48,685 nt of DNA, taken from a virus. Its lineage: Duplodnaviria; Heunggongvirae; Uroviricota; Caudoviricetes. Position 1 is the stretch's first letter. Every line of letters begins with the position of its first letter. The stretch is from the IMG/VR virus record IMGVR_UViG_2541047926_000004, positions 1-48,685 of that record; one strand, given 5' to 3'. The translations under genes were made by a program, and so were the position numbers. This document shows positions 12,378 through 26,705 of the stretch, piece by piece. The notes under the pieces are model-generated. The model had not been told where the DNA came from and ran no database searches. It was given only the letters and a program-made list of their open reading frames with translations.

Positions 12378-12872
12378 ATGAGAAAATTTATTTTAGCCTT
12401 TGTTATAAGTGCCTCGTTTACAGCAAATGCTGGTGTAGAGAAGTTAGGGCCGTGGATAACAAAGTCTGAGATAAATAAAATGACTGACCAGACTGACTTT
12501 GTGGCTCTTAATTTATCACCAGATTCATATAACAAAGCAGGTACTGATCGTGCAACTTCACTGGTGTTGCGTTGTAGTGATAACAAAACAGATGCCTATT
12601 TATCATTCAATGATTATATGGGTTCGGACAACCCAAGAATTACAGTGCGGTTAGATGGCGGAAAGCCGGTCAAGAGTGTTTGGGGAGGTGGGGAAGGCGG
12701 TGATTCTGCATTTGCTCCACAACCAATACAATTTATAAAGACCTTGGCTAAGCATAAAAAAGCTATTTTTGGGTTTGAACCTTATGGATCAACTATGCAA
12801 GTAGTTGAGTTTGACTTGTCTGAGATTGATAAGGTTGTGGAAAAAATTTCACAGTCTTGCAATTGGAAATGA
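12378..12872 (+). CDS. hypothetical exported protein (signal peptide)
   Basis: 164 aa; N-terminal MRKFILAFVISASFTANA signal-like; AAGGAGA RBS; followed by its own terminator. Confidence 0.55.
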   Translation: MRKFILAFVISASFTANAGVEKLGPWITKSEINKMTDQTDFVALNLSPDSYNKAGTDRATSLVLRCSDNKTDAYLSFNDYMGSDNPRITVRLDGGKPVKSVWGGGEGGDSAFAPQPIQFIKTLAKHKKAIFGFEPYGSTMQVVEFDLSEIDKVVEKISQSCNWK

Positions 12873-15184: not shown

Positions 15185-15321
15185 TGTTTGAGTCTTATAT
15201 GGCAGAACGTCTTCGCCACCGCTGGATGCGCCTGCGCTTATATCGTTTCCCCGGTTCTGTTTTGACCGATTACCGGATACTGAAGAATTACGCCAAAACA
15301 CTGAAAGGAGCTGCCGCATGA
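15181..15321 (+). CDS. ylcG: YlcG-like small protein
   Basis: 46 aa [26 protein letters not shown]... overlapping rusA stop and Q start. Confidence 0.5.
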
Positions 15322-16007
15322 ATACCCAATATTTACAGTATGTCCGCGAGCAACTCATTGTGGCTACTGCTGATTTGAGCGGAGCAACGAAAGGCCAGCT
15401 TGAAGCCTGGCTGGAGCATGCACAATTTGATACTGGTACATATAAACGAAAGAAGCCGCGCATTCTGGATGAGGTAACGGGCAAGATGATTACGCTGGAT
15501 AATCCGCCGATTTCCGGTAAGCAGTCGTACGCAAAAGGTTCATCCATTGCACTGGTCAGCCAGGTTGAGTTCTCAACATCTTCATGGCGCCGCGCGGTTC
15601 TGTCTCTCGAAGAACATCAGAAAGCGTGGTTGCTATGGAACTATAGCGAGAACGTGCGCTGGTGCTATCAGGTGGAAATCACTCAATGGGCGTGGGCAGA
15701 GTTCCGGGAGCAGCTCGGCGCGAAGAAGGTGGCCGGCAAAACGATGGAGCGCCTGAAGAAGCTTGTCTGGCTCGCGGCTCAGGACGTGAAAGCAGAGCTG
15801 GCAGGGCGTGAGACGTATGAATACCAAAAGCTTGCCGCCATGGTCGGAGTGACCCCGAAGAACTGGTCAGAAACGTTTACAGAACGGTGGGAGGAGATGA
15901 AAACCACCTTGCGGCGCCTTGATAGCGATTCTCTTTTGCAGGTAACGCGATCACGTTCACAACAAAAGGCGACAAATTTAGACTCAAGTCTTGCAAAACT
16001 GGATTAA
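15318..16007 (+). CDS. late-gene antiterminator Q
   Basis: 229 aa at the Q position just upstream of the lysis genes; AGGAG RBS. Confidence 0.8.
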   Translation: MNTQYLQYVREQLIVATADLSGATKGQLEAWLEHAQFDTGTYKRKKPRILDEVTGKMITLDNPPISGKQSYAKGSSIALVSQVEFSTSSWRRAVLSLEEHQKAWLLWNYSENVRWCYQVEITQWAWAEFREQLGAKKVAGKTMERLKKLVWLAAQDVKAELAGRETYEYQKLAAMVGVTPKNWSETFTERWEEMKTTLRRLDSDSLLQVTRSRSQQKATNLDSSLAKLD

Positions 16008-17330: not shown

Positions 17331-17609
17331 ATGACCAGAATGAGCACCATTTACAGCAGACTTTCATATGGAACAGGAACCACGCTGACCGGCTGCGGTG
17401 TATCAGCGAAGGCATATGCCGAAACAGCTAAAACAGCAAAAGAGGTGTCCTGGATGTTGGCCGACAGAATTGCAGGGTTAAGCCTGAGCGACTGGGCAAT
17501 TATTGTCGGTATCGCATGCACTGTTATTACCTGTGCAGTGAACTGGTATTTCCGCTGGAAAGAACGGGAGGATCGGCGCAATGGCTATGCCACCAAAGCT
17601 GAAGAATAG
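17331..17609 (+). CDS. holin
   Basis: 92 aa; dual-start MTRM; transmembrane stretches; C-terminal basic tail similar to Qin/21-type holins; GGAGGTGAGG RBS. Confidence 0.8.
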
Positions 17610-18153
17610 CGTTATTGCAGCGATACCCGCTGGCGCTATTGCTATCGCTGCGGCGTTGATTACTGGCCCAACGGGTAATGATGGCCTTGAAGGTGTACGC
17701 TATCAGCCTTATCGGGATGTTGTTGGAGTGTGGACTGTATGCTGGGGCCATACTGGTAAAGATATTATCCTCGGCAAGACCTACACCAAAGCAGAGTGCC
17801 AGGCGCTGCTGGATAAAGACCTGAATATTGTCGCCCGACAGATTAACCCATATATCAATGCTCCGATCCCCGAAACGATGAGAGGGGCGCTGTACTCATT
17901 TGCGTATAACGTAGGCGCGGGAAACTTCAAAACCTCCACACTGTTACGAAAAATCAACCAGGGTGATTCGAAAGGCGCATGCGAACAACTGCGGCGCTGG
18001 ATCTATGCTGGTGACAAACAGTGGAAGGGTTTAATCACGAGGCGTGAGATTGAGCGTGAAGTTTGCCTGTGGGCAGAGAAACCTCAGGTTCTGGGGGATG
18101 GACTCGGGCCGCTTAACCCTGGCATTCCGGTATCAGTTCCGGGGGTATTCTGA
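17581..18153 (+). CDS. SAR endolysin (lysozyme)
   Basis: 190 aa; N-terminal signal-anchor-release region ([16 protein letters not shown]) then lysozyme-like domain. Confidence 0.85.
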
Positions 18154-18689
18154 TGAAACCCAGAAAAATTACGATTGTTGCGGTTCTGCTGGTGGCTGTC
18201 GTAATCATTATTGCAGTGCTTAGCGTATTACTGGTTCGTAGCCGCTCAGCTCTTGAAACAGAACAGAGTGAGAATCGGGTATTACGTAATGATAACGCGC
18301 TGCAGGCGACGGTGATAACTACACAGGCTTTCAACTTCAATCGGTTTAACCAGATAGCAGAGAACGCCAACCGCCTTAACTCGCTGATCGATGCCGGTAC
18401 TGAGAAAACTGTCATCGAATACCGGGAGATTCTCCGACGTGAAAAGACCTGTGATCTGCCTGTTCCTGCTGATGTCGCTGGTGGGCTGCTCAAATACGCG
18501 TACCGTTTACGTGCCAGCGCAATGCACCCCGATACCGGGAACACTAACGCAACCGATGATAGTACCGCTGCCGCCAGCTCAATGACGTATTGCCAGGCCG
18601 TCCTCTGGATTGAACCTTTGCTGGCTGTTATTGAGAAGGGCAACAATAACCTGGCGGGTATACGAGAGATTGAGAAGTTACGAAAATGA
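18153..18689 (+). CDS. i-spanin Rz
   Basis: 178 aa; N-terminal TM, coiled-coil body; directly after endolysin. Confidence 0.8.
   Translation: MKPRKITIVAVLLVAVVIIIAVLSVLLVRSRSALETEQSENRVLRNDNALQATVITTQAFNFNRFNQIAENANRLNSLIDAGTEKTVIEYREILRREKTCDLPVPADVAGGLLKYAYRLRASAMHPDTGNTNATDDSTAAASSMTYCQAVLWIEPLLAVIEKGNNNLAGIREIEKLRK
18391..18585 (+). CDS. o-spanin Rz1 (embedded in Rz, +1 frame)
   Basis: Lipobox LVGC after a hydrophobic segment; proline-rich C-terminus; true start may be internal. Confidence 0.5.
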   Translation: MPVLRKLSSNTGRFSDVKRPVICLFLLMSLVGCSNTRTVYVPAQCTPIPGTLTQPMIVPLPPAQ

Positions 18690-19059
18690 ATAATGTCCGT
18701 TGACATTGTTAGGGTGATTCTCATTTAACAACCTCAACTGCTACATTACAGTGCTTCATCATGCAATTAGCTTTTTCACCAATGGCTTAGATCCAGTGAA
18801 AGTTACTGACGTTATCTAATGACAAGATGAACGTAGCTTTTGTGTAGTTTTTCAGCGAATAGGATTATCTGAATTTAGCATTTTTGGCTTGTATAAACTG
18901 TGGGTAAGTAGCTATAGTCACGTCATAGATAGTATTTTTGCATCTTTTTCAAGCCTCTTTTGAGGCTTTTTGCACATTTAAATATGACAACAATGGCACA
19001 TATAGTATGTCCCCCTTGGCACAGGCACTATATGTAGCGCTATAAAAGGAGCTATCATT

Positions 19060-19260
19060 ATGACCCCAGCTGAGTTCTACGATGTTTACAATATCAAACC
19101 GGCAGAAATGTTGACTGGTGAAACTGTTAACAACTTCGCTTCTCGTGTAATGGCACAGCAAACTAGTACGAGTGGAAACACAGGTGTTTGGTACTCACAA
19201 GGTACCGCTACACAATCGAAGCAAAACCAAACTACAAGTCATCAACTTTACACGTACTGA
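19060..19260 (+). CDS. hypothetical small protein with Q/S/T-rich C-terminal tail
   Basis: 66 aa; AGGAG RBS; stop 3 nt before the next gene. Confidence 0.4.
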   Translation: MTPAEFYDVYNIKPAEMLTGETVNNFASRVMAQQTSTSGNTGVWYSQGTATQSKQNQTTSHQLYTY

Positions 19261-19263
19261 TTT

Positions 19264-20166
19264 ATGCCTAATTGGAGCGACGTACTGGGCGAGATAACGG
19301 CTCTCGCCCATAAAAGTCCTATGGATGAGGTTCGCCGTAAATACTTATCTCAACTTTCGAATCATACTGGAAGAAATGTAATCACATATTACTCAGGGTG
19401 GTTACAGCATGGTGGTGCAGAAGTACGCCATCTTACTCAGATGACTGATGATGATAAGAACGGGTTGATGACAGCCATCAATGGTTTAGATGTATCAAAA
19501 GGGTTGGATTTGATACTTCATACTCCAGGTGGTGATATTGCCGCTTTGGAATCAATCGGGCATTACTTAAGGTCGAAGTTTGGAACTAACATCAGAGCAA
19601 TTGTTCCTATGATTTCAATGTCCTGCGGAACTATGCTTGCATGTTGTGCCAATGAAATCATCATGGGTAAACAGTCCAACATTGGCCCAATTGATCCTCA
19701 GTTCAACGGTTTCTCCACCCATGCCATCATTGAAGAATGGAATCGTGCGCAGACGGAAATTTTTCAAAATCCCGCAGCTGTTCAGATGTGGCAGTTCATT
19801 CTTCAAAAGCTAAACCCGACGATCATCGGCGAGTGTGAGAAAGCAATCAAATGGGCAAATGAGATTGTTAAGCATTGGCTTATGACAGGCATGTTTGATA
19901 ATGATCCTGAGGCAGAATCAAAAGCAACACATGTTTGTTCAGAGTTAAACAACCATCACACAACCTATACCCACTCGCGTCATATTCATTTTGATAAGGC
20001 GCAGAAAATTGGGTTGAATGTTACCGAACTTGAAAGTGATCAAGTACTTCAAGATTTGGTTTTGACTATACATCACAGCTACATGCATTCTTTTGGTGGA
20101 GCACCACTGGCAAAAATCATTGAAAATCATAACGGTAACGCAATGATTTGGAATATCCAGTCTTAA
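19264..20166 (+). CDS. ClpP/S49-like serine peptidase family protein (accessory)
   Basis: 300 aa; LILHTPGGDIAALESIGHYL resembles the ClpP/S49 motif also present in the prohead protease of this prophage (INSPGGDV); candidate Ser in MSCGTM. Confidence 0.55.
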   Translation: MPNWSDVLGEITALAHKSPMDEVRRKYLSQLSNHTGRNVITYYSGWLQHGGAEVRHLTQMTDDDKNGLMTAINGLDVSKGLDLILHTPGGDIAALESIGHYLRSKFGTNIRAIVPMISMSCGTMLACCANEIIMGKQSNIGPIDPQFNGFSTHAIIEEWNRAQTEIFQNPAAVQMWQFILQKLNPTIIGECEKAIKWANEIVKHWLMTGMFDNDPEAESKATHVCSELNNHHTTYTHSRHIHFDKAQKIGLNVTELESDQVLQDLVLTIHHSYMHSFGGAPLAKIIENHNGNAMIWNIQS

Positions 20167-20182
20167 TCCCCCCTGTCTGATT

Positions 20183-20210
20183 CCAGCCTCGCCTATGCGG
20201 GGCTTTTTTA
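20183..20210 (+). terminator. rho-independent terminator
   Basis: Hairpin AGCCTCGC-CTAT-GCGGGGCT followed by TTTTTT. Confidence 0.5.
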
Positions 20211-20317
20211 CGCGTATTGCATACTCAAATCAAACTAGAGTCATTTAGAAGAGAATTCAAAACGGCGGTCGGACCTGTGTTTTCTTATGGGTCCTCCCGG
20301 CGGGGTTGCCTACCACG

Positions 20318-20329: not shown

Positions 20330-20446
20330 CGCGGAAAACGGCTAGTTTTTGCGATCTAGGGTCATCATCATCATTTATGCAGGTCTTTGATTTGTTTAAA
20401 GTCCGTTTTCGCAAGATGTCGAATCGTTTAAAAAGTGTTCACCATC

Positions 20447-20935
20447 ATGGACCAGGAAATCGCCGCATTAAAACTGAATATCAACCAGCTTGCCGGGATA
20501 ACCGGCGTACACCGTCAGACGGTTGCCGCGAGGTTGAAAAATGTCGAACCTGCGCCAGGCAGCAACAGCAAATTAAAGCTCTATCTGGTTACAGACATTC
20601 TGACCGAACTGATGATCCCCACCGTGTCGACGAATATCGACGATATGGATCCATCCGACAGGCTCGCTCACTGGAAAGCAGAGAACGAGAGGCTGAAGTT
20701 TGAACAAGATACGGGGCAGTTAATACCCGCTGATGAAGTGGCGCGTGAATTCTCATTGATGGCGAAAGCCGTCGTCATGGTACTTGAAACTCTCCCTGAC
20801 ATACTCGAACGCGACTGCGCATTAACGCCGACTGCGGTTTCCCGCGTACAAAACGTTATCGATGACCTGCGCGACCAGATGGCGGAGAGGGCGAAGGACG
20901 CTGAAACAGAGGAGGAAGAGCCAGAGGAGGACTGA
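20447..20935 (+). CDS. terminase small subunit (Nu1-like)
   Basis: HTH LAGITGVHRQTVAARL near N-terminus; acidic C-terminus; immediately upstream of the large terminase. Confidence 0.7.
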   Translation: MDQEIAALKLNINQLAGITGVHRQTVAARLKNVEPAPGSNSKLKLYLVTDILTELMIPTVSTNIDDMDPSDRLAHWKAENERLKFEQDTGQLIPADEVAREFSLMAKAVVMVLETLPDILERDCALTPTAVSRVQNVIDDLRDQMAERAKDAETEEEEPEED

Positions 20936-23037
20936 TGGCAAAGCGGGCATCCGCCAGGGGCATCCGCCGCGATGTTTCCGGTATTTTACGTGCCCCGCGT
21001 CGTATGCCGGTGGCCGATGCGGTCGGTACATATATGCGCGTGCCAATGGGGGCAGGAAACTCAGTTCCATGGGACCCGGATCTTGCACCTTATGTGATTG
21101 AGCCGATGAATTGCCTGTCCTCGCGTGAATACGATGCGGTTGTGTTTGTTGGCCCGGCGCGAACGGGTAAAACCATCGGGCTGATTGACGGATGGATTGT
21201 CTATAACATCGTCTGCGATCCGGCAGATATGCTCGTCATTCAGGTATCAGAGGAAAAGGCGCGCGAGCATTCAAAAAAACGTCTGGACCGTACTTTTCGC
21301 TGCAGCCCTGAAGTTAAAAACCGGTTAAGCCCGAGGCGTAACGATAACAACGTCTACGATCGTACATTCCGCGCCGGTAACTATCTGAAGCTCGGCTGGC
21401 CATCCGTCAATATTATGTCGTCCTCTGACTATAAAAGTGTGGCGCTGACGGATTACGACCGCTTTCCTGAAGATATCGACGGGGAGGGCGACGCTTTTTC
21501 ACTGGCGTCGAAACGTACCACGACATTTATGTCCTCCGGGATGACGCTGGTTGAGAGTTCACCCGGCAGGGATATCAGAGACACAAAATGGCGGCGAACC
21601 ACGCCTCATGAAGCCCCTCCAACTACCGGAATTTTATCACTCTATAACCGTGGCGACCGCCGCCGCCTTTACTGGCCATGCCCGCATTGTGGGGAGTATT
21701 TCCAGCCGGAAATGGACAATATGACCGGGTACCGCGACAGCAGCGATCCCGTACTGGCCAGTGAAGCCGCGTTTCTACAGTGCCCGGCCTGTAAAGGCAG
21801 GATCACACCGGACATGAAGCGTGCGCTGAACATGAAATGTGTCTGGCTGAGGGATGGGCAGAGTATCGACCGTAAAGGTCAGGTAAGTGGTGATGGCCGT
21901 CGTTCCCGTATTGCCTCCTTCTGGATGGAAGGTCCGGCAGCTGCATACCAGACCTGGGCGCAGCTTATTTATAAGTACCTGACCGCCGAGCAGGAATACG
22001 AATCCACGCGCAGCGAAGAAACCCTGAAAACGGTGATCAACACCGATTTCGGCAGACCCTATCTGCCTCGGGCAAGCCTGGAGCAGCGTAAAAGTGAATT
22101 GCTCGAGCAGCGTGCCGAGGATGTTCCAAAACGTTCGGTACCGGACGGCGTGCAGTTTCTCACCGCGACCGTGGACGTGCAGGCCGGGCGCGACCGGCGA
22201 TTTGTAGTGCAGGTTACGGGTTACGGAAGTATGGGTGAGCGCTGGATAATTGACCGTTACAACATACGGTATTCGCTGCGCTGTGACGGCAACGGGGAAA
22301 GCATACAGGTTGATCCGGCAAGCTATCCGGAGGACTGGGATCTTTTGCTCACTGACGTCTTTGAGAAAACGTGGCCTCTGGCATCTGACCCGTCAAAGGG
22401 CATGCGGCTTATGTCGATGGCCGTGGACTCCGGGGGCGAGGACGGTGTAACGGATAATGCCTACAAGTTCTGGCGCAGATGCCGCCGGGAGGGGCTGGGT
22501 AAGCGTATCTATCTCTTCAAAGGTGACAGTGTTCGTCGCAGCAAACTTATCCAGCGAACGTTTCCCGACAACACCGGCAGATCAACACGCCGCGCACAGG
22601 CGACCGGGGATGTGCCTCTTTATCTTCTCCAGACCGATGCCCTTAAAGACCGGGTGAACAATGCGCTGTGGCGTGATTCACCCGGCCCTGGCTATGTGCA
22701 TTTCCCCGCCTGGCTGGGCAGCTGGTTCTATGACGAATTGACATATGAGGAACGCTCGAATGAAGGGAAGTGGAGTAAGCCCGGCCGGGGCGCAAACGAA
22801 GCATTCGACCTGCTCGTTTATGCAGATGCGCTCGCCATCCTTAGTGGATACGAAAAAATTAAATGGCCGTCAGCTCCTGAGTGGGCACGGAGGGAAACGT
22901 GGATCGAGGACACGCAGACGGAAACTGGCGAAGTGCCATCCCCGTCGCCTGCGCCGAAATCTAAATCAAAACCAAAACGTGAGAAGCCCGTAACCGAGCA
23001 GGCTAATCCGTGGTCTTCGTCAGGAGGTTGGGTGTGA
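20935..23037 (+). CDS. A: terminase large subunit (lambda A family)
   Basis: 700 aa; Walker A VGPARTGKT; lambda gpA-like. Confidence 0.95.
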   Translation: MAKRASARGIRRDVSGILRAPRRMPVADAVGTYMRVPMGAGNSVPWDPDLAPYVIEPMNCLSSREYDAVVFVGPARTGKTIGLIDGWIVYNIVCDPADMLVIQVSEEKAREHSKKRLDRTFRCSPEVKNRLSPRRNDNNVYDRTFRAGNYLKLGWPSVNIMSSSDYKSVALTDYDRFPEDIDGEGDAFSLASKRTTTFMSSGMTLVESSPGRDIRDTKWRRTTPHEAPPTTGILSLYNRGDRRRLYWPCPHCGEYFQPEMDNMTGYRDSSDPVLASEAAFLQCPACKGRITPDMKRALNMKCVWLRDGQSIDRKGQVSGDGRRSRIASFWMEGPAAAYQTWAQLIYKYLTAEQEYESTRSEETLKTVINTDFGRPYLPRASLEQRKSELLEQRAEDVPKRSVPDGVQFLTATVDVQAGRDRRFVVQVTGYGSMGERWIIDRYNIRYSLRCDGNGESIQVDPASYPEDWDLLLTDVFEKTWPLASDPSKGMRLMSMAVDSGGEDGVTDNAYKFWRRCRREGLGKRIYLFKGDSVRRSKLIQRTFPDNTGRSTRRAQATGDVPLYLLQTDALKDRVNNALWRDSPGPGYVHFPAWLGSWFYDELTYEERSNEGKWSKPGRGANEAFDLLVYADALAILSGYEKIKWPSAPEWARRETWIEDTQTETGEVPSPSPAPKSKSKPKREKPVTEQANPWSSSGGWV

Positions 23038-23249: not shown

Positions 23250-24745
23250 GTTTTTTAGATGATGCGATAGGCCTGTTTTCACCAGGCTGGAAAGCCTCAC
23301 GCCTGCGTGCCCGCGCAGTTATTAAGGCGTATGAGGCGGTAAAGCAAACGCGTACCCACAAAGCCCAGAAGGAAAATCGTTCAGCCGATCAGCTCAGCCA
23401 GATGGGGGCGGTTTCACTGAGGCAGCAGGCGCGCTGGCTGGACAACAACCACGATCTGGTGATTGGCGTTTTCGACAAGCTGGAAGAAAGGGTGGTGGGT
23501 GCGAAGGGCATCATAGTTGAACCGCATCCGATGCTGACTAACGGGAAGATAGCTAAAAAGCTGGCCACTGATATCCGCAGAAAGTGGGGCGAATGGTCCG
23601 TAAGACCCGATGTTACAACCCAGTTTACCCGCCCCATGCTGGAGCGGCTGATGCTGCGAACGTGGCTCCGGGACGGTGAGGTATTTGCTCAGCTGGTTCG
23701 CGGTACCGGAAATGGCCTTCAGCCGGTTGCTGGCGTGCCGTTCTGGCTGGAAGCGCTGGAGCCGGACTTCGTGCCGATGAACAGCGATGCCGCCACCCAG
23801 CTCAATCAGGGCGTTTTTGTCGATAACTGGGGGCGCCCGAAAAAATATCAGGTCTATAAAAGCCTGCCAGTATCCGGGCGTCAGTTCGATACCAAAGAGA
23901 TAGATGCAGAAAACATGCTTCATCTCAAATTCACACGACGCCTGCACCAGACCCGCGGAACGTCTCTATTGTCAGGTGTTCTGATGCGTCTGAGCGCGCT
24001 GAAAGAGTACGAGGACTCGGAGCTTACCGCTGCCAGAATTGCTGCCGCACTCGGCATGTATATCAAAAAAGGCGACGGACAGAGCTTCGAGTCTGATTCC
24101 AGCAGCGATGACCGCGAGCTGATGATTCAGCCCGGTATGCTCTATGACGAGCTGCAGGCCGGGGAAGAAATCGGGATGATTAAATCCGATCGCCCGAACC
24201 CTAACCTCGAGTCGTTTCGTAACGGACAGCTGCGTGCCGTGTCCGCCGGCAGTCGCCTCAGCTTTTCCAGCACATCCAGAAACTACAACGGAACGTACAG
24301 TGCCCAGCGGCAGGAGCTTGTCGAGTCAACCGACGGATATCTGATTCTTCAGGACTGGTTCATCGGTTCAGTGACCCGGCCCATGTACCGGGCCTGGCTG
24401 AAGATGGCTATTGCTGCCGGAGAAATCAAGCTGCCGAGAGGCATCGATATGGACTCGCTTTATAACGCGGTTTATTCGGGGCCCGTTATGCCGTGGATTG
24501 ATCCCGTTAAAGAAGCGAATGCCTGGAAAACGCAGATCCGCGGCGGTGCTGCTACCGAATCCGACTGGATACGTGCCAGCGGTCGCAACCCGGATGATGT
24601 TAAGTCACGCCGTAAAGCGGAGGTTGACGAGAACCGTGAACAGGGCCTGGTGTTTGACACCGACCCCGCCAATGATAAAGGAGGCACCAGTGCCGAAGCC
24701 AAAGAACCGGGCGCGCCACCGTCCGAAAGCCAGCGCAAAAAGTAA
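23246..24745 (+). CDS. B: portal protein (lambda B family)
   Basis: 499 aa between W and the head protease. Confidence 0.9.
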   Translation: MSFLDDAIGLFSPGWKASRLRARAVIKAYEAVKQTRTHKAQKENRSADQLSQMGAVSLRQQARWLDNNHDLVIGVFDKLEERVVGAKGIIVEPHPMLTNGKIAKKLATDIRRKWGEWSVRPDVTTQFTRPMLERLMLRTWLRDGEVFAQLVRGTGNGLQPVAGVPFWLEALEPDFVPMNSDAATQLNQGVFVDNWGRPKKYQVYKSLPVSGRQFDTKEIDAENMLHLKFTRRLHQTRGTSLLSGVLMRLSALKEYEDSELTAARIAAALGMYIKKGDGQSFESDSSSDDRELMIQPGMLYDELQAGEEIGMIKSDRPNPNLESFRNGQLRAVSAGSRLSFSSTSRNYNGTYSAQRQELVESTDGYLILQDWFIGSVTRPMYRAWLKMAIAAGEIKLPRGIDMDSLYNAVYSGPVMPWIDPVKEANAWKTQIRGGAATESDWIRASGRNPDDVKSRRKAEVDENREQGLVFDTDPANDKGGTSAEAKEPGAPPSESQRKK

Positions 24746-24758
24746 TTCGTGGTTCCGC

Positions 24759-26705
24759 ATGCAGGCCAGCAATAACAGCGAGGCCGACATTTTTATCTAT
24801 GACGAAATCGGGTACTGGGGCGTAACGGCGAAACAGTTCGTCAATGATCTCCGGGCACTTGGGGACGTCACCCACATCAACCTTTATATCAACTCGCCCG
24901 GTGGTGATGTCTTCGACGGTATTGCTATTTATAACGCGCTGAAGCACCACGGCGCGGCGATTACCGTGCATATCGACGGTCTCGCGGCCTCCATGGCCTC
25001 GGTGATTGCGATGGTAGGCAATCCGGTCATCATGCCTGAAAACACGATGATGATGATCCATAAGCCCTGGGGGTTTGCTGGTGGTGACGCGAGCGATATG
25101 CGCGACTATGCGGATCTTCTCGACAAGGTTGAATCCGTTCTTATCCCGGCTTACGCGCAAAAAACCGGAAAATCCACCGAAGAAATTGCGGCAATGCTGG
25201 AAGACGAAACATGGATGAGCGGCAGCGAGTGCCTTGAACTGGGTTTTGCCGACCAGGTGACTCCATCCCTGCAGGCTATGGCCTGTATCCATTCAAAACG
25301 TATTGAGGAATTTGAAAAAATGCCAAAAAGCATTCGCAACATGCTCACCCCGCCGCGCAATACTACCCAGCGTGACCCGGTTATTACCCAGTCTCAGGCA
25401 CCGCAGGCAAAAACTGACCCGGCGCCGGATGAAAATGCGATCCGCGCGAAGGTGATGGCTGAGCAGAAAGCCCGTGTTAACGCCATCGGTGATCTCTTTG
25501 CCATGTTCGGTAATAAACACATGGAACTGCAAAATCAGTGCGTGGCCGACCCTGATTGTTCCGTTGATAAGGCGAAAGATTTGCTGCTGGCAGAGCTCGG
25601 TAAAACGGCCACGCCATCCAACAAAACCACACAACAGCATATTTATGCGGGCAACGGTAATTTCGTTGCGGATGGTATTCGCCAGGCGCTGATGGCGCGT
25701 GCCGGTTTTGAAGGCCAGGAGCGGGATAACGTTTATAACGGTATGACGCTGCGCGAGTATGCGCGCATGGCCCTGACAGAAAAAGGTATCGGTGTATCCA
25801 GCTACAATCCGATGCAGATGGTTGGCCTAGCGCTGACGCACAGCACCTCTGACTTTGGCAATATTCTGCTGGATGTGGCGAACAAAGCGCTGCTTCAGGG
25901 CTGGGAAGAATCCCAGGAAACCTTCGAACTGTGGACCAAAAAAGGCCAGCTGTCAGACTTCAAAACGGCGCATCGTGTCGGTATGGGTGGTTTCCCTTCT
26001 CTGAGACAGGTTCGCGAGGGGGCGGAGTACAAGTACGTCACTACCAGTGATAAAGGCGAAACCATCGCGCTTGCCACTTATGGTGAAATTTTCTCTGTTA
26101 CCCGCCAGGCGATCATTAACGACGATCTGAACCAGCTCACCGACGTGCCGATGAAGATGGGGCGCGCGGCGAAAGCAACGATTGGCGATCTGGTTTACGC
26201 CATCCTGACCAAAAACCCGAAGCTCTCCGACGGCAAACCGCTGTTCCATGCCGATCACAAGAACCTGAGCGCGGGCGCAATTTCTGTGGCCAGCCTGGAC
26301 GAAGCGCGCAAGCTGATGCGCCTGCAAAAGGAAGGTGAGCGTACCCTGAATATCCGCCCAGCCTACATGCTGGTGCCTGTAGCTCTGGAAACCCTGGCGA
26401 ATCAGACTATCAAGTCGGCCAGTGTTAAAGGTGCTGATATTAATGCCGGCATCGTTAACCCGATCCAAAACTTTGCAGAGGTCATCGCTGAACCGCGTCT
26501 GGATGAAGCGGATGCGAAAGCCTGGTATCTGGCCGCCGCGAAGGGCACCGACACCATCGAGGTCGCTTATCTCAACGGTGTCGATACGCCTTACATCGAT
26601 CAGCAGGAAGGCTTCACCACTGATGGTATCGCCACGAAAGTGCGTATTGATGCCGGTGTGGCGCCGCTGGACCATCGCGGCATGACCAAATCCACTGGTC
26701 AATAA
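24759..26705 (+). CDS. prohead protease (ClpP-like) fused to major capsid protein
   Basis: 648 aa from ATG 24759; N-terminal INSPGGDV protease motif, C-terminal capsid domain; track ORF 24411.. is an upstream extension overlapping the portal. Confidence 0.85.
   Translation: MQASNNSEADIFIYDEIGYWGVTAKQFVNDLRALGDVTHINLYINSPGGDVFDGIAIYNALKHHGAAITVHIDGLAASMASVIAMVGNPVIMPENTMMMIHKPWGFAGGDASDMRDYADLLDKVESVLIPAYAQKTGKSTEEIAAMLEDETWMSGSECLELGFADQVTPSLQAMACIHSKRIEEFEKMPKSIRNMLTPPRNTTQRDPVITQSQAPQAKTDPAPDENAIRAKVMAEQKARVNAIGDLFAMFGNKHMELQNQCVADPDCSVDKAKDLLLAELGKTATPSNKTTQQHIYAGNGNFVADGIRQALMARAGFEGQERDNVYNGMTLREYARMALTEKGIGVSSYNPMQMVGLALTHSTSDFGNILLDVANKALLQGWEESQETFELWTKKGQLSDFKTAHRVGMGGFPSLRQVREGAEYKYVTTSDKGETIALATYGEIFSVTRQAIINDDLNQLTDVPMKMGRAAKATIGDLVYAILTKNPKLSDGKPLFHADHKNLSAGAISVASLDEARKLMRLQKEGERTLNIRPAYMLVPVALETLANQTIKSASVKGADINAGIVNPIQNFAEVIAEPRLDEADAKAWYLAAAKGTDTIEVAYLNGVDTPYIDQQEGFTTDGIATKVRIDAGVAPLDHRGMTKSTGQ

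Follow-up and report, generated by a model that had tools for sequence, protein, structure and literature searches.

A mobile two-gene cassette joining an SDH-type Clp-fold protease to a small conserved partner in a lambdoid prophage

We analysed a stretch of 48,685 nucleotides (nt) of viral DNA (Caudoviricetes; IMG/VR record IMGVR_UViG_2541047926_000004, positions 1 to 48,685), here called the window at its full length, and found a two-gene cassette at about 18690-20221, in the late region of a lambdoid prophage. The cassette consists of a gene for a partner protein of 66 amino acids (aa) followed by a gene for a 300-aa serine protease of the SDH type, and it is an autonomous, horizontally mobile 'moron' that moves among the cargo slots of prophages. 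On criteria of domain and architecture it is a probable prophage-borne member of the FS_HP_SDH_sah kind of two-gene anti-phage system. We lean, with little more than even confidence, towards reading it as a prophage-borne module for anti-phage defence or superinfection exclusion, in which the protease would be the effector and the partner its cognate regulator or pseudo-substrate. New relative to the literature that we found are a partner family with its own motif that crosses phyla, a variable gene order, the absence of a third component, and a conserved structured leader. The coordinates of all features are collected in Table 1.

The two open reading frames (ORFs) lie in the same frame with a gap of 3 nt (TGA and TTT stand between them), and the cassette ends in an intrinsic terminator for which a terminator scan gave an 8-bp stem with 6 GC pairs, a 4-nt loop and a T-run. 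The sequence has no Shine-Dalgarno element before the ATG of the protease gene, which together with the short gap suggests that translation of the protease is probably coupled to that of the partner. The original prediction, made from the letters of the window, had described two ORFs 3 nt apart with a ribosome-binding site and a terminator of their own, and all of these are present as stated. It had also called the cassette a self-contained insert beyond the spanin genes, which agrees with its position between the Rz/Rz1-like and terminase genes, with its foreign composition (35-43% GC against 50-56% in the flanks) and with mosaic junctions on both sides, at ~18677 on the left and ~20210-20221 on the right, in comparison with other E. 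coli prophages. Some of these prophages have the same lysis genes with different cargo, others the same cassette with a different terminase.

More than 8,000 database proteins match the protease, which recurs in nearly all bacterial phyla, with identities of 50-57% in Nitrospinota, Planctomycetota, Bacteroidota, Firmicutes, Chloroflexota, Actinomycetota, Patescibacteria and others; the maintenance of such identity across phyla points to extensive horizontal transfer under strong constraint. The exact cassette was found in 42 of 5,426 complete E. coli genomes, and with more distant alleles included the total is 80. Relatives of the protease are encoded on 220 IMG/VR contigs and in cultured phages of Shewanella (Mu-like), Porphyromonas and Gordonia. 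The slot occupied in the window extends from Rz to the putative cos site, while other E. coli alleles, including that of the probiotic strain Nissle 1917, are found after bor or between Q and the lysis genes, and an Enterobacter copy lies between Q and the holin gene. Such slots are classic sites for cargo expressed in the lysogen (bor, stx and defence genes). The Nissle 1917 allele (L092, NZ_CP022686 454923-456041) has ~70% DNA identity and is placed between Q and a DNA methyltransferase gene in a lambdoid prophage; every context examined among the E. coli alleles was a lambdoid prophage, and no copy was carried by a phage-inducible chromosomal island (PICI). In Mu-like prophages the pair stands between Mor/C and the lysis genes, in Aeromonas beside a TIR-domain gene; in a Pseudomonas prophage it is located at the edge, adjoining the integrase, and a chromosomal copy adjoins YafQ-type toxin and Fic genes. 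The edge of a prophage is a frequent position of the cassette.

The protease matches the Pfam family PF01972 (SDH_protease) over residues 22-255 with 81.2 bits against a cut-off of 31.3 (E = 8.4e-23), and it belongs to PHROG 11747 (E = 2e-138), a PHROG of no known function. It bears the RefSeq name 'SDH family Clp fold serine proteinase', despite a score of 95.9 bits with the NCBIfam equivalog of that name, NF047768, which is below the 250-bit cut-off. An AlphaFold2 model built on a 94-sequence alignment reached a mean predicted local distance difference test (pLDDT) score of 90.7 and a predicted template modelling (pTM) score of 0.87, and the best Foldseek matches in the PDB were ClpP and SppA (probability 1.00, target-normalised TM-score up to 0.68); with ClpP and SppA as the top matches, no closer relative has a solved structure. 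The 300-aa protein is thus a free-standing Clp-fold peptidase, as had been predicted. The label 'ClpP/S49-type' given to it earlier holds for the Clp fold and not for S49/SppA proper, because the SppA family TIGR00706 scores 16 bits against a cut-off of 155 and the resemblance to SppA is one of fold only. There was no significant match to PF00574 (ClpP), a weak match to the NfeD-type family PF25145 (25 bits against a cut-off of 40), and a score at noise level for the head-maturation family NF045542 (20.9 bits against 120).

In a profile search against PDB sequences, Ser120 (ISMSCGTM) aligned with the catalytic Ser of ClpP and of the NfeD protease 1510-N, in keeping with the earlier proposal of the Ser in MSCGTM as the candidate nucleophile. 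The residues H86, T87, P88, G89, G90, S120, D144, H237, R239, H240 and H271 are invariant in 94 homologues. The invariant Ser, Asp and His residues and their order along the chain, Ser-Asp-His, which is the source of the name SDH, argue for an active ClpP-fold serine protease that would use Ser120, Asp144 and a downstream His. The motif HTPGGDI of this protein and INSPGGDV of the head protease of the same prophage, a ClpP-capsid fusion, had both been pointed out before and are both present; the identity between the two proteins is 27% over 55 residues. The cassette gene lies outside the head module, and the cassette moves independently of the head genes, so that the claim that the enzyme is not needed for head maturation is upheld. 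Neither a missing protease fold nor an inactive duplicate, the two outcomes that would have spoken against the original prediction, was found: the fold is modelled and the active-site residues are invariant.

Longer homologues of the protease yielded no natural fusion with the partner; what makes them longer is either a short stretch added at the N-terminus or a C-terminal tail rich in Q and P. Such tails, of 20-45 residues, occur in P0065 (from a Dehalobacter metagenome-assembled genome), P0068, P0092, P0096 and P0117, while the E. coli protein is without them. The start codons called by PGAP for several protease genes fall 40-60 nt 3' of the conserved MPNW start.

The pairing of the two genes is conserved. 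At 82 of 93 loci an ORF of at least 35 aa (median 67 aa) ends between -35 and +25 nt from the protease start, commonly with overlaps of -8, -17 or -26 nt or with gaps of 0-15 nt. We compared the flanking small ORFs all against all with phmmer (E < 1e-3), and those of 53 loci from different phyla, including the protein of the window, fell into one connected component; the partner is upstream of the protease in 46 of these loci and immediately downstream in 7. Smaller clusters, such as a Bacteroidales type with the motif HWTRLSxNSN, are outside the main component and look like further diverged members of the partner family. Altogether a gene of the partner family adjoins the protease gene in ~85% of the loci sampled, across many phyla. 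An independent IMG/VR set had a partner positive with a hidden Markov model (HMM) in 62 of 79 loci. No third gene family recurred among 391 neighbouring ORFs in a survey of 79 loci, which indicates that the functional unit is exactly partner plus protease. Across loci the similarity of the partners co-varies with that of the proteases (Mantel r = 0.44; reached by 0 of 999 permutations). Some IMG/VR contigs or fetched ranges (L130, L131, L153, L156, L165 and L171) begin exactly at the start codon of the protease, and the partner is cut off.

The 66-aa partner belongs to PHROG 25714 only and has no Pfam family. Compared with an allele of ~82% DNA identity and 85% partner-protein identity, its ratio of nonsynonymous to synonymous substitution rates (dN/dS) is 0.06, against 0.02 for the protease, and in dN it exceeds the protease about threefold; judged by these substitutions, the ORF is a real gene under purifying selection. 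Together with the phmmer-linked family and the HMM-positive viral loci, this bears out the earlier view of a genuine, conserved partner. AlphaFold2 predicted for the partner alone two helices of moderate confidence (residues 3-9 and 23-36), followed by a region of low confidence (residues 38-66) that is consistent with disorder and contains both motifs of the tail. In the window the N-terminal motifs read PAEFYDVYNIK and FASRVMAQ (NFASRV), the tail motif GVWYSQGT and the C-terminus QLYTY. The signature of the family, from 85 distinct sequences, consists of an N-terminal helix I-x3-[YF]-x2-[LF]-G-[IL], an [FY]-[AG] pair and the motif G-[VI]-x-[YF]-[ST]-x-[SG]-[TS], in short form [VI]-x-Y-S-x-[ST]-[ST], which is situated inside the predicted disordered tail. 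Gammaproteobacterial partners end in (L/M)Y(S/T)Y.

With the partner alone as query, only close enterobacterial relatives were reached. A word-indexed search gave 10 clusters, tblastn against phages found nothing, a profile of 9 enterobacterial partners retrieved ~12 small proteins from 1.84 billion representatives, and HMM iteration seeded from the partner family of the window did not reach beyond that family; the wide family surfaced only when ORFs adjoining protease genes were compared. The partner gene is often overlooked by annotation: the 66-aa gene is left unannotated in RefSeq records with an identical allele (e.g., L001 6361-6561, NZ_CP025916), and the partners of other alleles are named 'hypothetical protein'. 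The near-invariant N-terminal strand VITYYSGWL of the protease (19378-19404) resembles the conserved GVWYSQGT of the partner (19183-19206), and MAFFT paired the two when it aligned a fusion construct; this likeness may be fortuitous, or it may point to mimicry between the strands or to their exchange.

Ahead of the two genes lies a conserved 5' leader (18889-19051), whose architecture is shared by 35 distinct gammaproteobacterial alleles with partners as little as 32% identical. The segment 18889-18918 is a candidate for the promoter of the cassette. A consensus scan missed it because its -35 hexamer matches 3 of 6 positions only, and an equivalent TTGTCA/TTGATA-N18-TATAGT is present in most of the 35 divergent alleles; in the Aeromonas Mu-like prophage, where the alignment is shifted, the equivalent was spotted by eye. 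Downstream, 28 of 30 distinct alleles are predicted to form a GC-rich hairpin of 7-10 bp with a U-tract behind it. Its stem differs between alleles (AAGCCUC, GAGCCUCC, ACCUCC, AACCCCGC) while the hairpin is kept, a pattern of compensatory change, and the hairpin at 18951-18972 may serve as an attenuator or mark where a leader RNA of ~50 nt ends. The order of promoter, terminator and genes suggests attenuation or a short leader RNA, with polymerase modified by Q reading through on induction.

The third element of the leader is an inverted repeat of the general form ACATnTnGT-N(~20)-ACnAnATGT, located just 5' of the small ORF in the loci checked. For the pattern ACATNTNGT-N(14-32)-ACNANATGT the window has a single match (0 expected); 36 related loci likewise have one apiece, without exception on the + (coding) strand. 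Aligned across alleles, 88.6% of its cells are paired, its covariation score is above all 500 shuffles and RNAalifold recovers it; 26 cells are G.U, which favours an RNA helix over a DNA operator, not decisively, and the repeat at 18998-19035 might be either a hairpin of the 5' leader RNA or a palindromic operator. The predicted fold of the leader has a free energy of -33.7 kcal/mol (z = -2.3), with both hairpins in the minimum-free-energy structure; no Rfam family matched the leader. The left arm of the palindrome was considered as the -10 element of a second promoter and rejected, as the hexamer is TATAGT here and TCTTGT or TGTTGT in other alleles. A stricter form of the palindrome, CTACATNTNGT-N14-32-ACNANATGTAG, has at least 120 matches in IMG/VR (loci L183-L302), 7 of which adjoin an SDH gene; at least 113 viral contigs carry it without an SDH gene, several 5' of unrelated genes. 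In these non-SDH palindromes the spacers have two preferred lengths, 19-21 and 29-30 nt, which differ by one helical turn, and both N pairs are complementary in 39 of 114 (~7 expected). Beyond the SDH loci the stem may represent a more general phage regulatory hairpin or operator, or a set of coincidental hairpins.

We infer the defence role, the partner's role as inhibitor or pseudo-substrate, the trigger and the targets. Four points underlie the proposed mechanism: the two genes are kept as a pair, they diverge together, the motif-bearing region is predicted to be disordered, and proteases of the SppA/NfeD type, which process themselves or a partner, offer an analogy. The protease, with Ser120, Asp144 and a downstream His, would be the effector, and the partner, made in fixed proportion with it through translational coupling, its cognate regulator. 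The N-terminal helical part of the partner may provide a docking or sensing surface, and the motif [VI]-x-Y-S-x-[ST]-[ST] of the disordered tail would fill the substrate groove as substrate or pseudo-substrate and keep the protease occupied. An infecting phage would displace or destroy the partner, and the freed protease could cleave phage proteins or essential host proteins. Expression would be set by the cassette's own promoter and the structured leader with its terminator-like hairpin, and Q-antiterminated late transcription may read through on induction. If the cassette is a defence system, it joins a small number of such systems in which the effector is a ClpP-fold protease. Temperate phages have spread it widely, and Nissle 1917 is among the strains that carry it. 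The module is widespread and mechanistically unexplained, and its existence and probable role are not surprising; the partner family, the tail motif and the leader offer handles for direct tests of mechanism.

Several observations weigh against the defence reading. The protease belongs to an SDH subfamily distinct from NF047768, and this subfamily may or may not be the validated one; neither protein of the cassette matches PADLOC-DB 2.0, where 15 diverse protease homologues gave matches at chance level only. Defence effectors do not usually keep an identity as high as the ~50% of this protease between phyla. Many copies stand at the start of phage late operons, where a function in the lytic cycle would also fit. 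The binding of the partner in the substrate groove is a conjecture. A bolder extension, which we regard as speculative, is a pan-bacterial proteolytic switch, in which a self-compartmentalising SDH protease would be held in check by the tail motif of a co-translated micro-protein, whose helical head would sense a conserved phage feature, with gating by an attenuator-type RNA leader. If true, a protease controlled by a pseudo-substrate micro-protein would represent a regulatory logic that is new among defence effectors, and the switch would explain why the protease remains ~50% identical across phyla while the partner diversifies.

Among the alternatives, an accessory function in the lytic cycle survives best, and we consider it unlikely. 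In this case the protease would act late in infection on host proteins (defence proteins, regulators or envelope factors), which it would degrade with the partner as adaptor or specificity factor, in the service of counter-defence or host takeover. The frequent position of the pair as first cargo after the late activator (Q then holin; Mor/C then lysis genes in Mu-like prophages) would suit such a role, as would the place of the window copy within the late operon after Rz, the expected read-through of the leader hairpin by Q-modified polymerase and the 220 viral contigs with a protease relative. However, the pair also occurs outside recognisable prophages, beside toxin-antitoxin and Fic genes, at prophage edges by the integrase and in varied chromosomal contexts of many phyla, and the cassette has a promoter-like element and a terminator of its own and uses slots that are classic for lysogen-expressed cargo.

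The position of the small gene, which comes first and overlaps or abuts the larger one (-8, -17, -26, 0-15 nt), is also what would be expected of a toxin-antitoxin or addiction module, with the protease as toxin and the fast-evolving partner as labile antitoxin, which would stabilise the element and have no specific anti-phage role. The threefold higher dN of the partner, the lack of any other conserved gene, neighbours such as YafQ, HicAB and Fic genes, and an upstream palindrome that could be an autoregulatory operator fit this explanation as well. Against it, 7 of the 53 phmmer-linked loci have the small gene second, the Pfam search detected no DNA-binding family in the partner, and the G.U-compatible changes of the palindrome favour RNA pairing over an operator; we hold it to be distinctly unlikely. 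It overlaps the defence reading, because many toxin-antitoxin modules act as defence systems.

It is improbable that the partner is a peptide precursor, with a leader-like helix, a cleavage motif and a variable C-terminal peptide, from which the protease as dedicated maturase releases a peptide that stays in the cell or is exported and acts as a signal or a toxin. The conserved helix and [VI]xYSx[ST][ST] followed by a hypervariable tail do recall the leader and core of ribosomal peptide precursors, and the extreme C-terminus (L/M)Y(S/T)Y is kept within the Gammaproteobacteria, but the neighbourhoods examined contained no modifying enzyme, exporter, receptor or signal peptide, and in some partners the tail is absent or a few residues long. 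A decayed duplicate of the head protease with a spurious ORF upstream is refuted: the two proteases share the xxPGGD oxyanion-hole motif and the Clp fold, but their identity is low, they match different Pfam families (PF01972 and PF00574), the active-site residues of the cassette enzyme are invariant, both ORFs are under strong purifying selection and the small one is conserved across phyla.

Table 1. Features of the cassette and of other genes in the window (positions refer to the 48,685-nt stretch).
Feature	Position	Strand	Details
Candidate sigma-70 promoter	18889-18918	+	TTGTAT (18889-18894), 18-nt spacer, TATAGT (18913-18918)
Terminator-like leader hairpin	18951-18972	+	AAGCCTC-TTTT-GAGGCTT, then T-run; between promoter and genes
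Inverted repeat	18998-19035	+	ACATATAGT-N20-ACTATATGT; ends 10 nt before the ribosome-binding site
Ribosome-binding site of small ORF	19046-19051	+	AAGGAG, from sequence; 8 nt before ATG 19060
66-aa partner gene	19060-19260	+	ORF
300-aa SDH-type ClpP-fold serine protease gene	19264-20166	+	ORF, PF01972
HTPGG motif	19519-19533		HTPGGDI = H86-I92
Ser120 codon	19621-19623		
Asp144 codon	19693-19695		
Intrinsic terminator closing the cassette	20185-20210	+	Terminator scan; stem 20185-20204, then T-run
Q gene	15318-16007		Lambdoid late region
Holin	17331-17609		Upstream of cassette
Lysozyme	17581-18153		Upstream of cassette
Rz-like gene	18153-18689		Directly upstream of cassette
Lipoprotein ORF inside Rz-like gene (Rz1-like)	18391-18585		
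DUF1441 protein	20435-20935		Downstream of cassette
gpA-type TerL	20935-23037		Downstream of cassette
ClpP-capsid fusion head protease	24411-26705		PF00574 and Phage_capsid_4; motif INSPGGDV
Two overlapping genes	6993-8625	-	Directly downstream of, and co-oriented with, cI-like S24 repressor gene (8746-9474)
164-aa early-region ORF	12378-12872		Borderline match to type VI secretion VasI (PF11319, 26.7 bits, cut-off 26.5)
274-aa GIY-YIG protein	44189-45013	-	PADLOC profile of defence gene PD-T4-3, E = 2.8e-140
AAA ATPase	47530-48396	+	IetA of IetAS defence system, E = 9e-70

The terminase gene is followed by a lambda-type portal gene and then by the ClpP-capsid fusion, whose ORF as listed overlaps the end of the portal gene, so that its true start is probably further downstream. 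Other genes of the window resemble known defence genes. The PD-T4-3 gene lies downstream of a tail-fibre-like gene (41110-42039), and the protease IetS, the partner of IetA, would fall beyond the end of the window; the presence of PD-T4-3 and IetA in the same window shows that the region accumulates defence cargo. The gene pair at 6993-8625 encodes a 254-aa HipA_2-like kinase (weak PADLOC match to PDC-M66A, E = 2e-6) and a 293-aa protein without a family. Lambda has rexAB in this slot, and the pair may be another defence pair.

The closest known counterpart of the cassette is the DefenseFinder system FS_HP_SDH_sah. The original prediction had assumed that no function was assigned to the pairing, which does not hold, since DefenseFinder lists FS_HP_SDH_sah as a two-gene anti-phage system (PMC13532340 quotes the name); PMC11364771 cites Fillol-Salom et al. 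2022 for immune systems encoded by PICIs. The likeness is one of name and architecture, a small protein of unknown family together with a protease of PF01972, which was formerly called 'SDH_sah'. The cassette has this domain and an adjacent, co-oriented small gene 3 nt upstream. Both elements occupy an accessory or cargo slot in a phage-related mobile element of Enterobacteria, here between Rz and terminase in a lambdoid prophage, there in a PICI. We take the prefix FS_ to stand for Fillol-Salom et al. (Cell 2022; PICI-encoded immune systems), in which FS_HP_SDH_sah was reportedly validated by experiment. The literature searched contained no published mechanism for FS_HP_SDH_sah and no account of what PF01972 proteins do in phage defence or how they do it. 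Another system of the Fillol-Salom laboratory, Tai, was set aside as unrelated; no protease is mentioned for it.

With ClpP (MEROPS S14) and the ClpP-like prohead proteases the cassette protease shares the ClpP/crotonase fold, the oxyanion-hole motif xxPGG and a nucleophilic Ser in an MS/AS-x-G elbow. It differs from ClpP in an extra helical C-terminal half (~residues 150-300), and from ClpP and the prohead proteases in having neither an AAA+ partner gene nor a head-module context. Asp144 presumably takes the place of the catalytic His of ClpP (GPIDPQ versus MIHQP in ClpP), which would give the order Ser-Asp-His. The NfeD/STOPP protease 1510-N of Pyrococcus horikoshii and SppA (S49) are self-compartmentalising Clp-fold serine proteases. 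1510-N cleaves the product of the neighbouring gene, its operon partner being stomatin, and PDB entry 4kwb, among the Foldseek matches, is an SppA crystal with its own C-termini in the active sites; both provide a functional analogy for a protease that acts on an operon partner or on a tail peptide. Unlike these enzymes, the cassette protease has no membrane anchor and no evident Ser-Lys dyad, and its partner is a soluble protein of 66 aa and not a stomatin. Lit, of prophage e14, is a single-gene zinc metalloprotease with EF-Tu as target and the Gol peptide as trigger; it is not known to have a small partner or a relation in sequence or fold to the cassette protease. As a latent, prophage-borne protease that becomes an abortive-infection effector in response to a phage peptide, Lit nevertheless serves as a conceptual model for the cassette.

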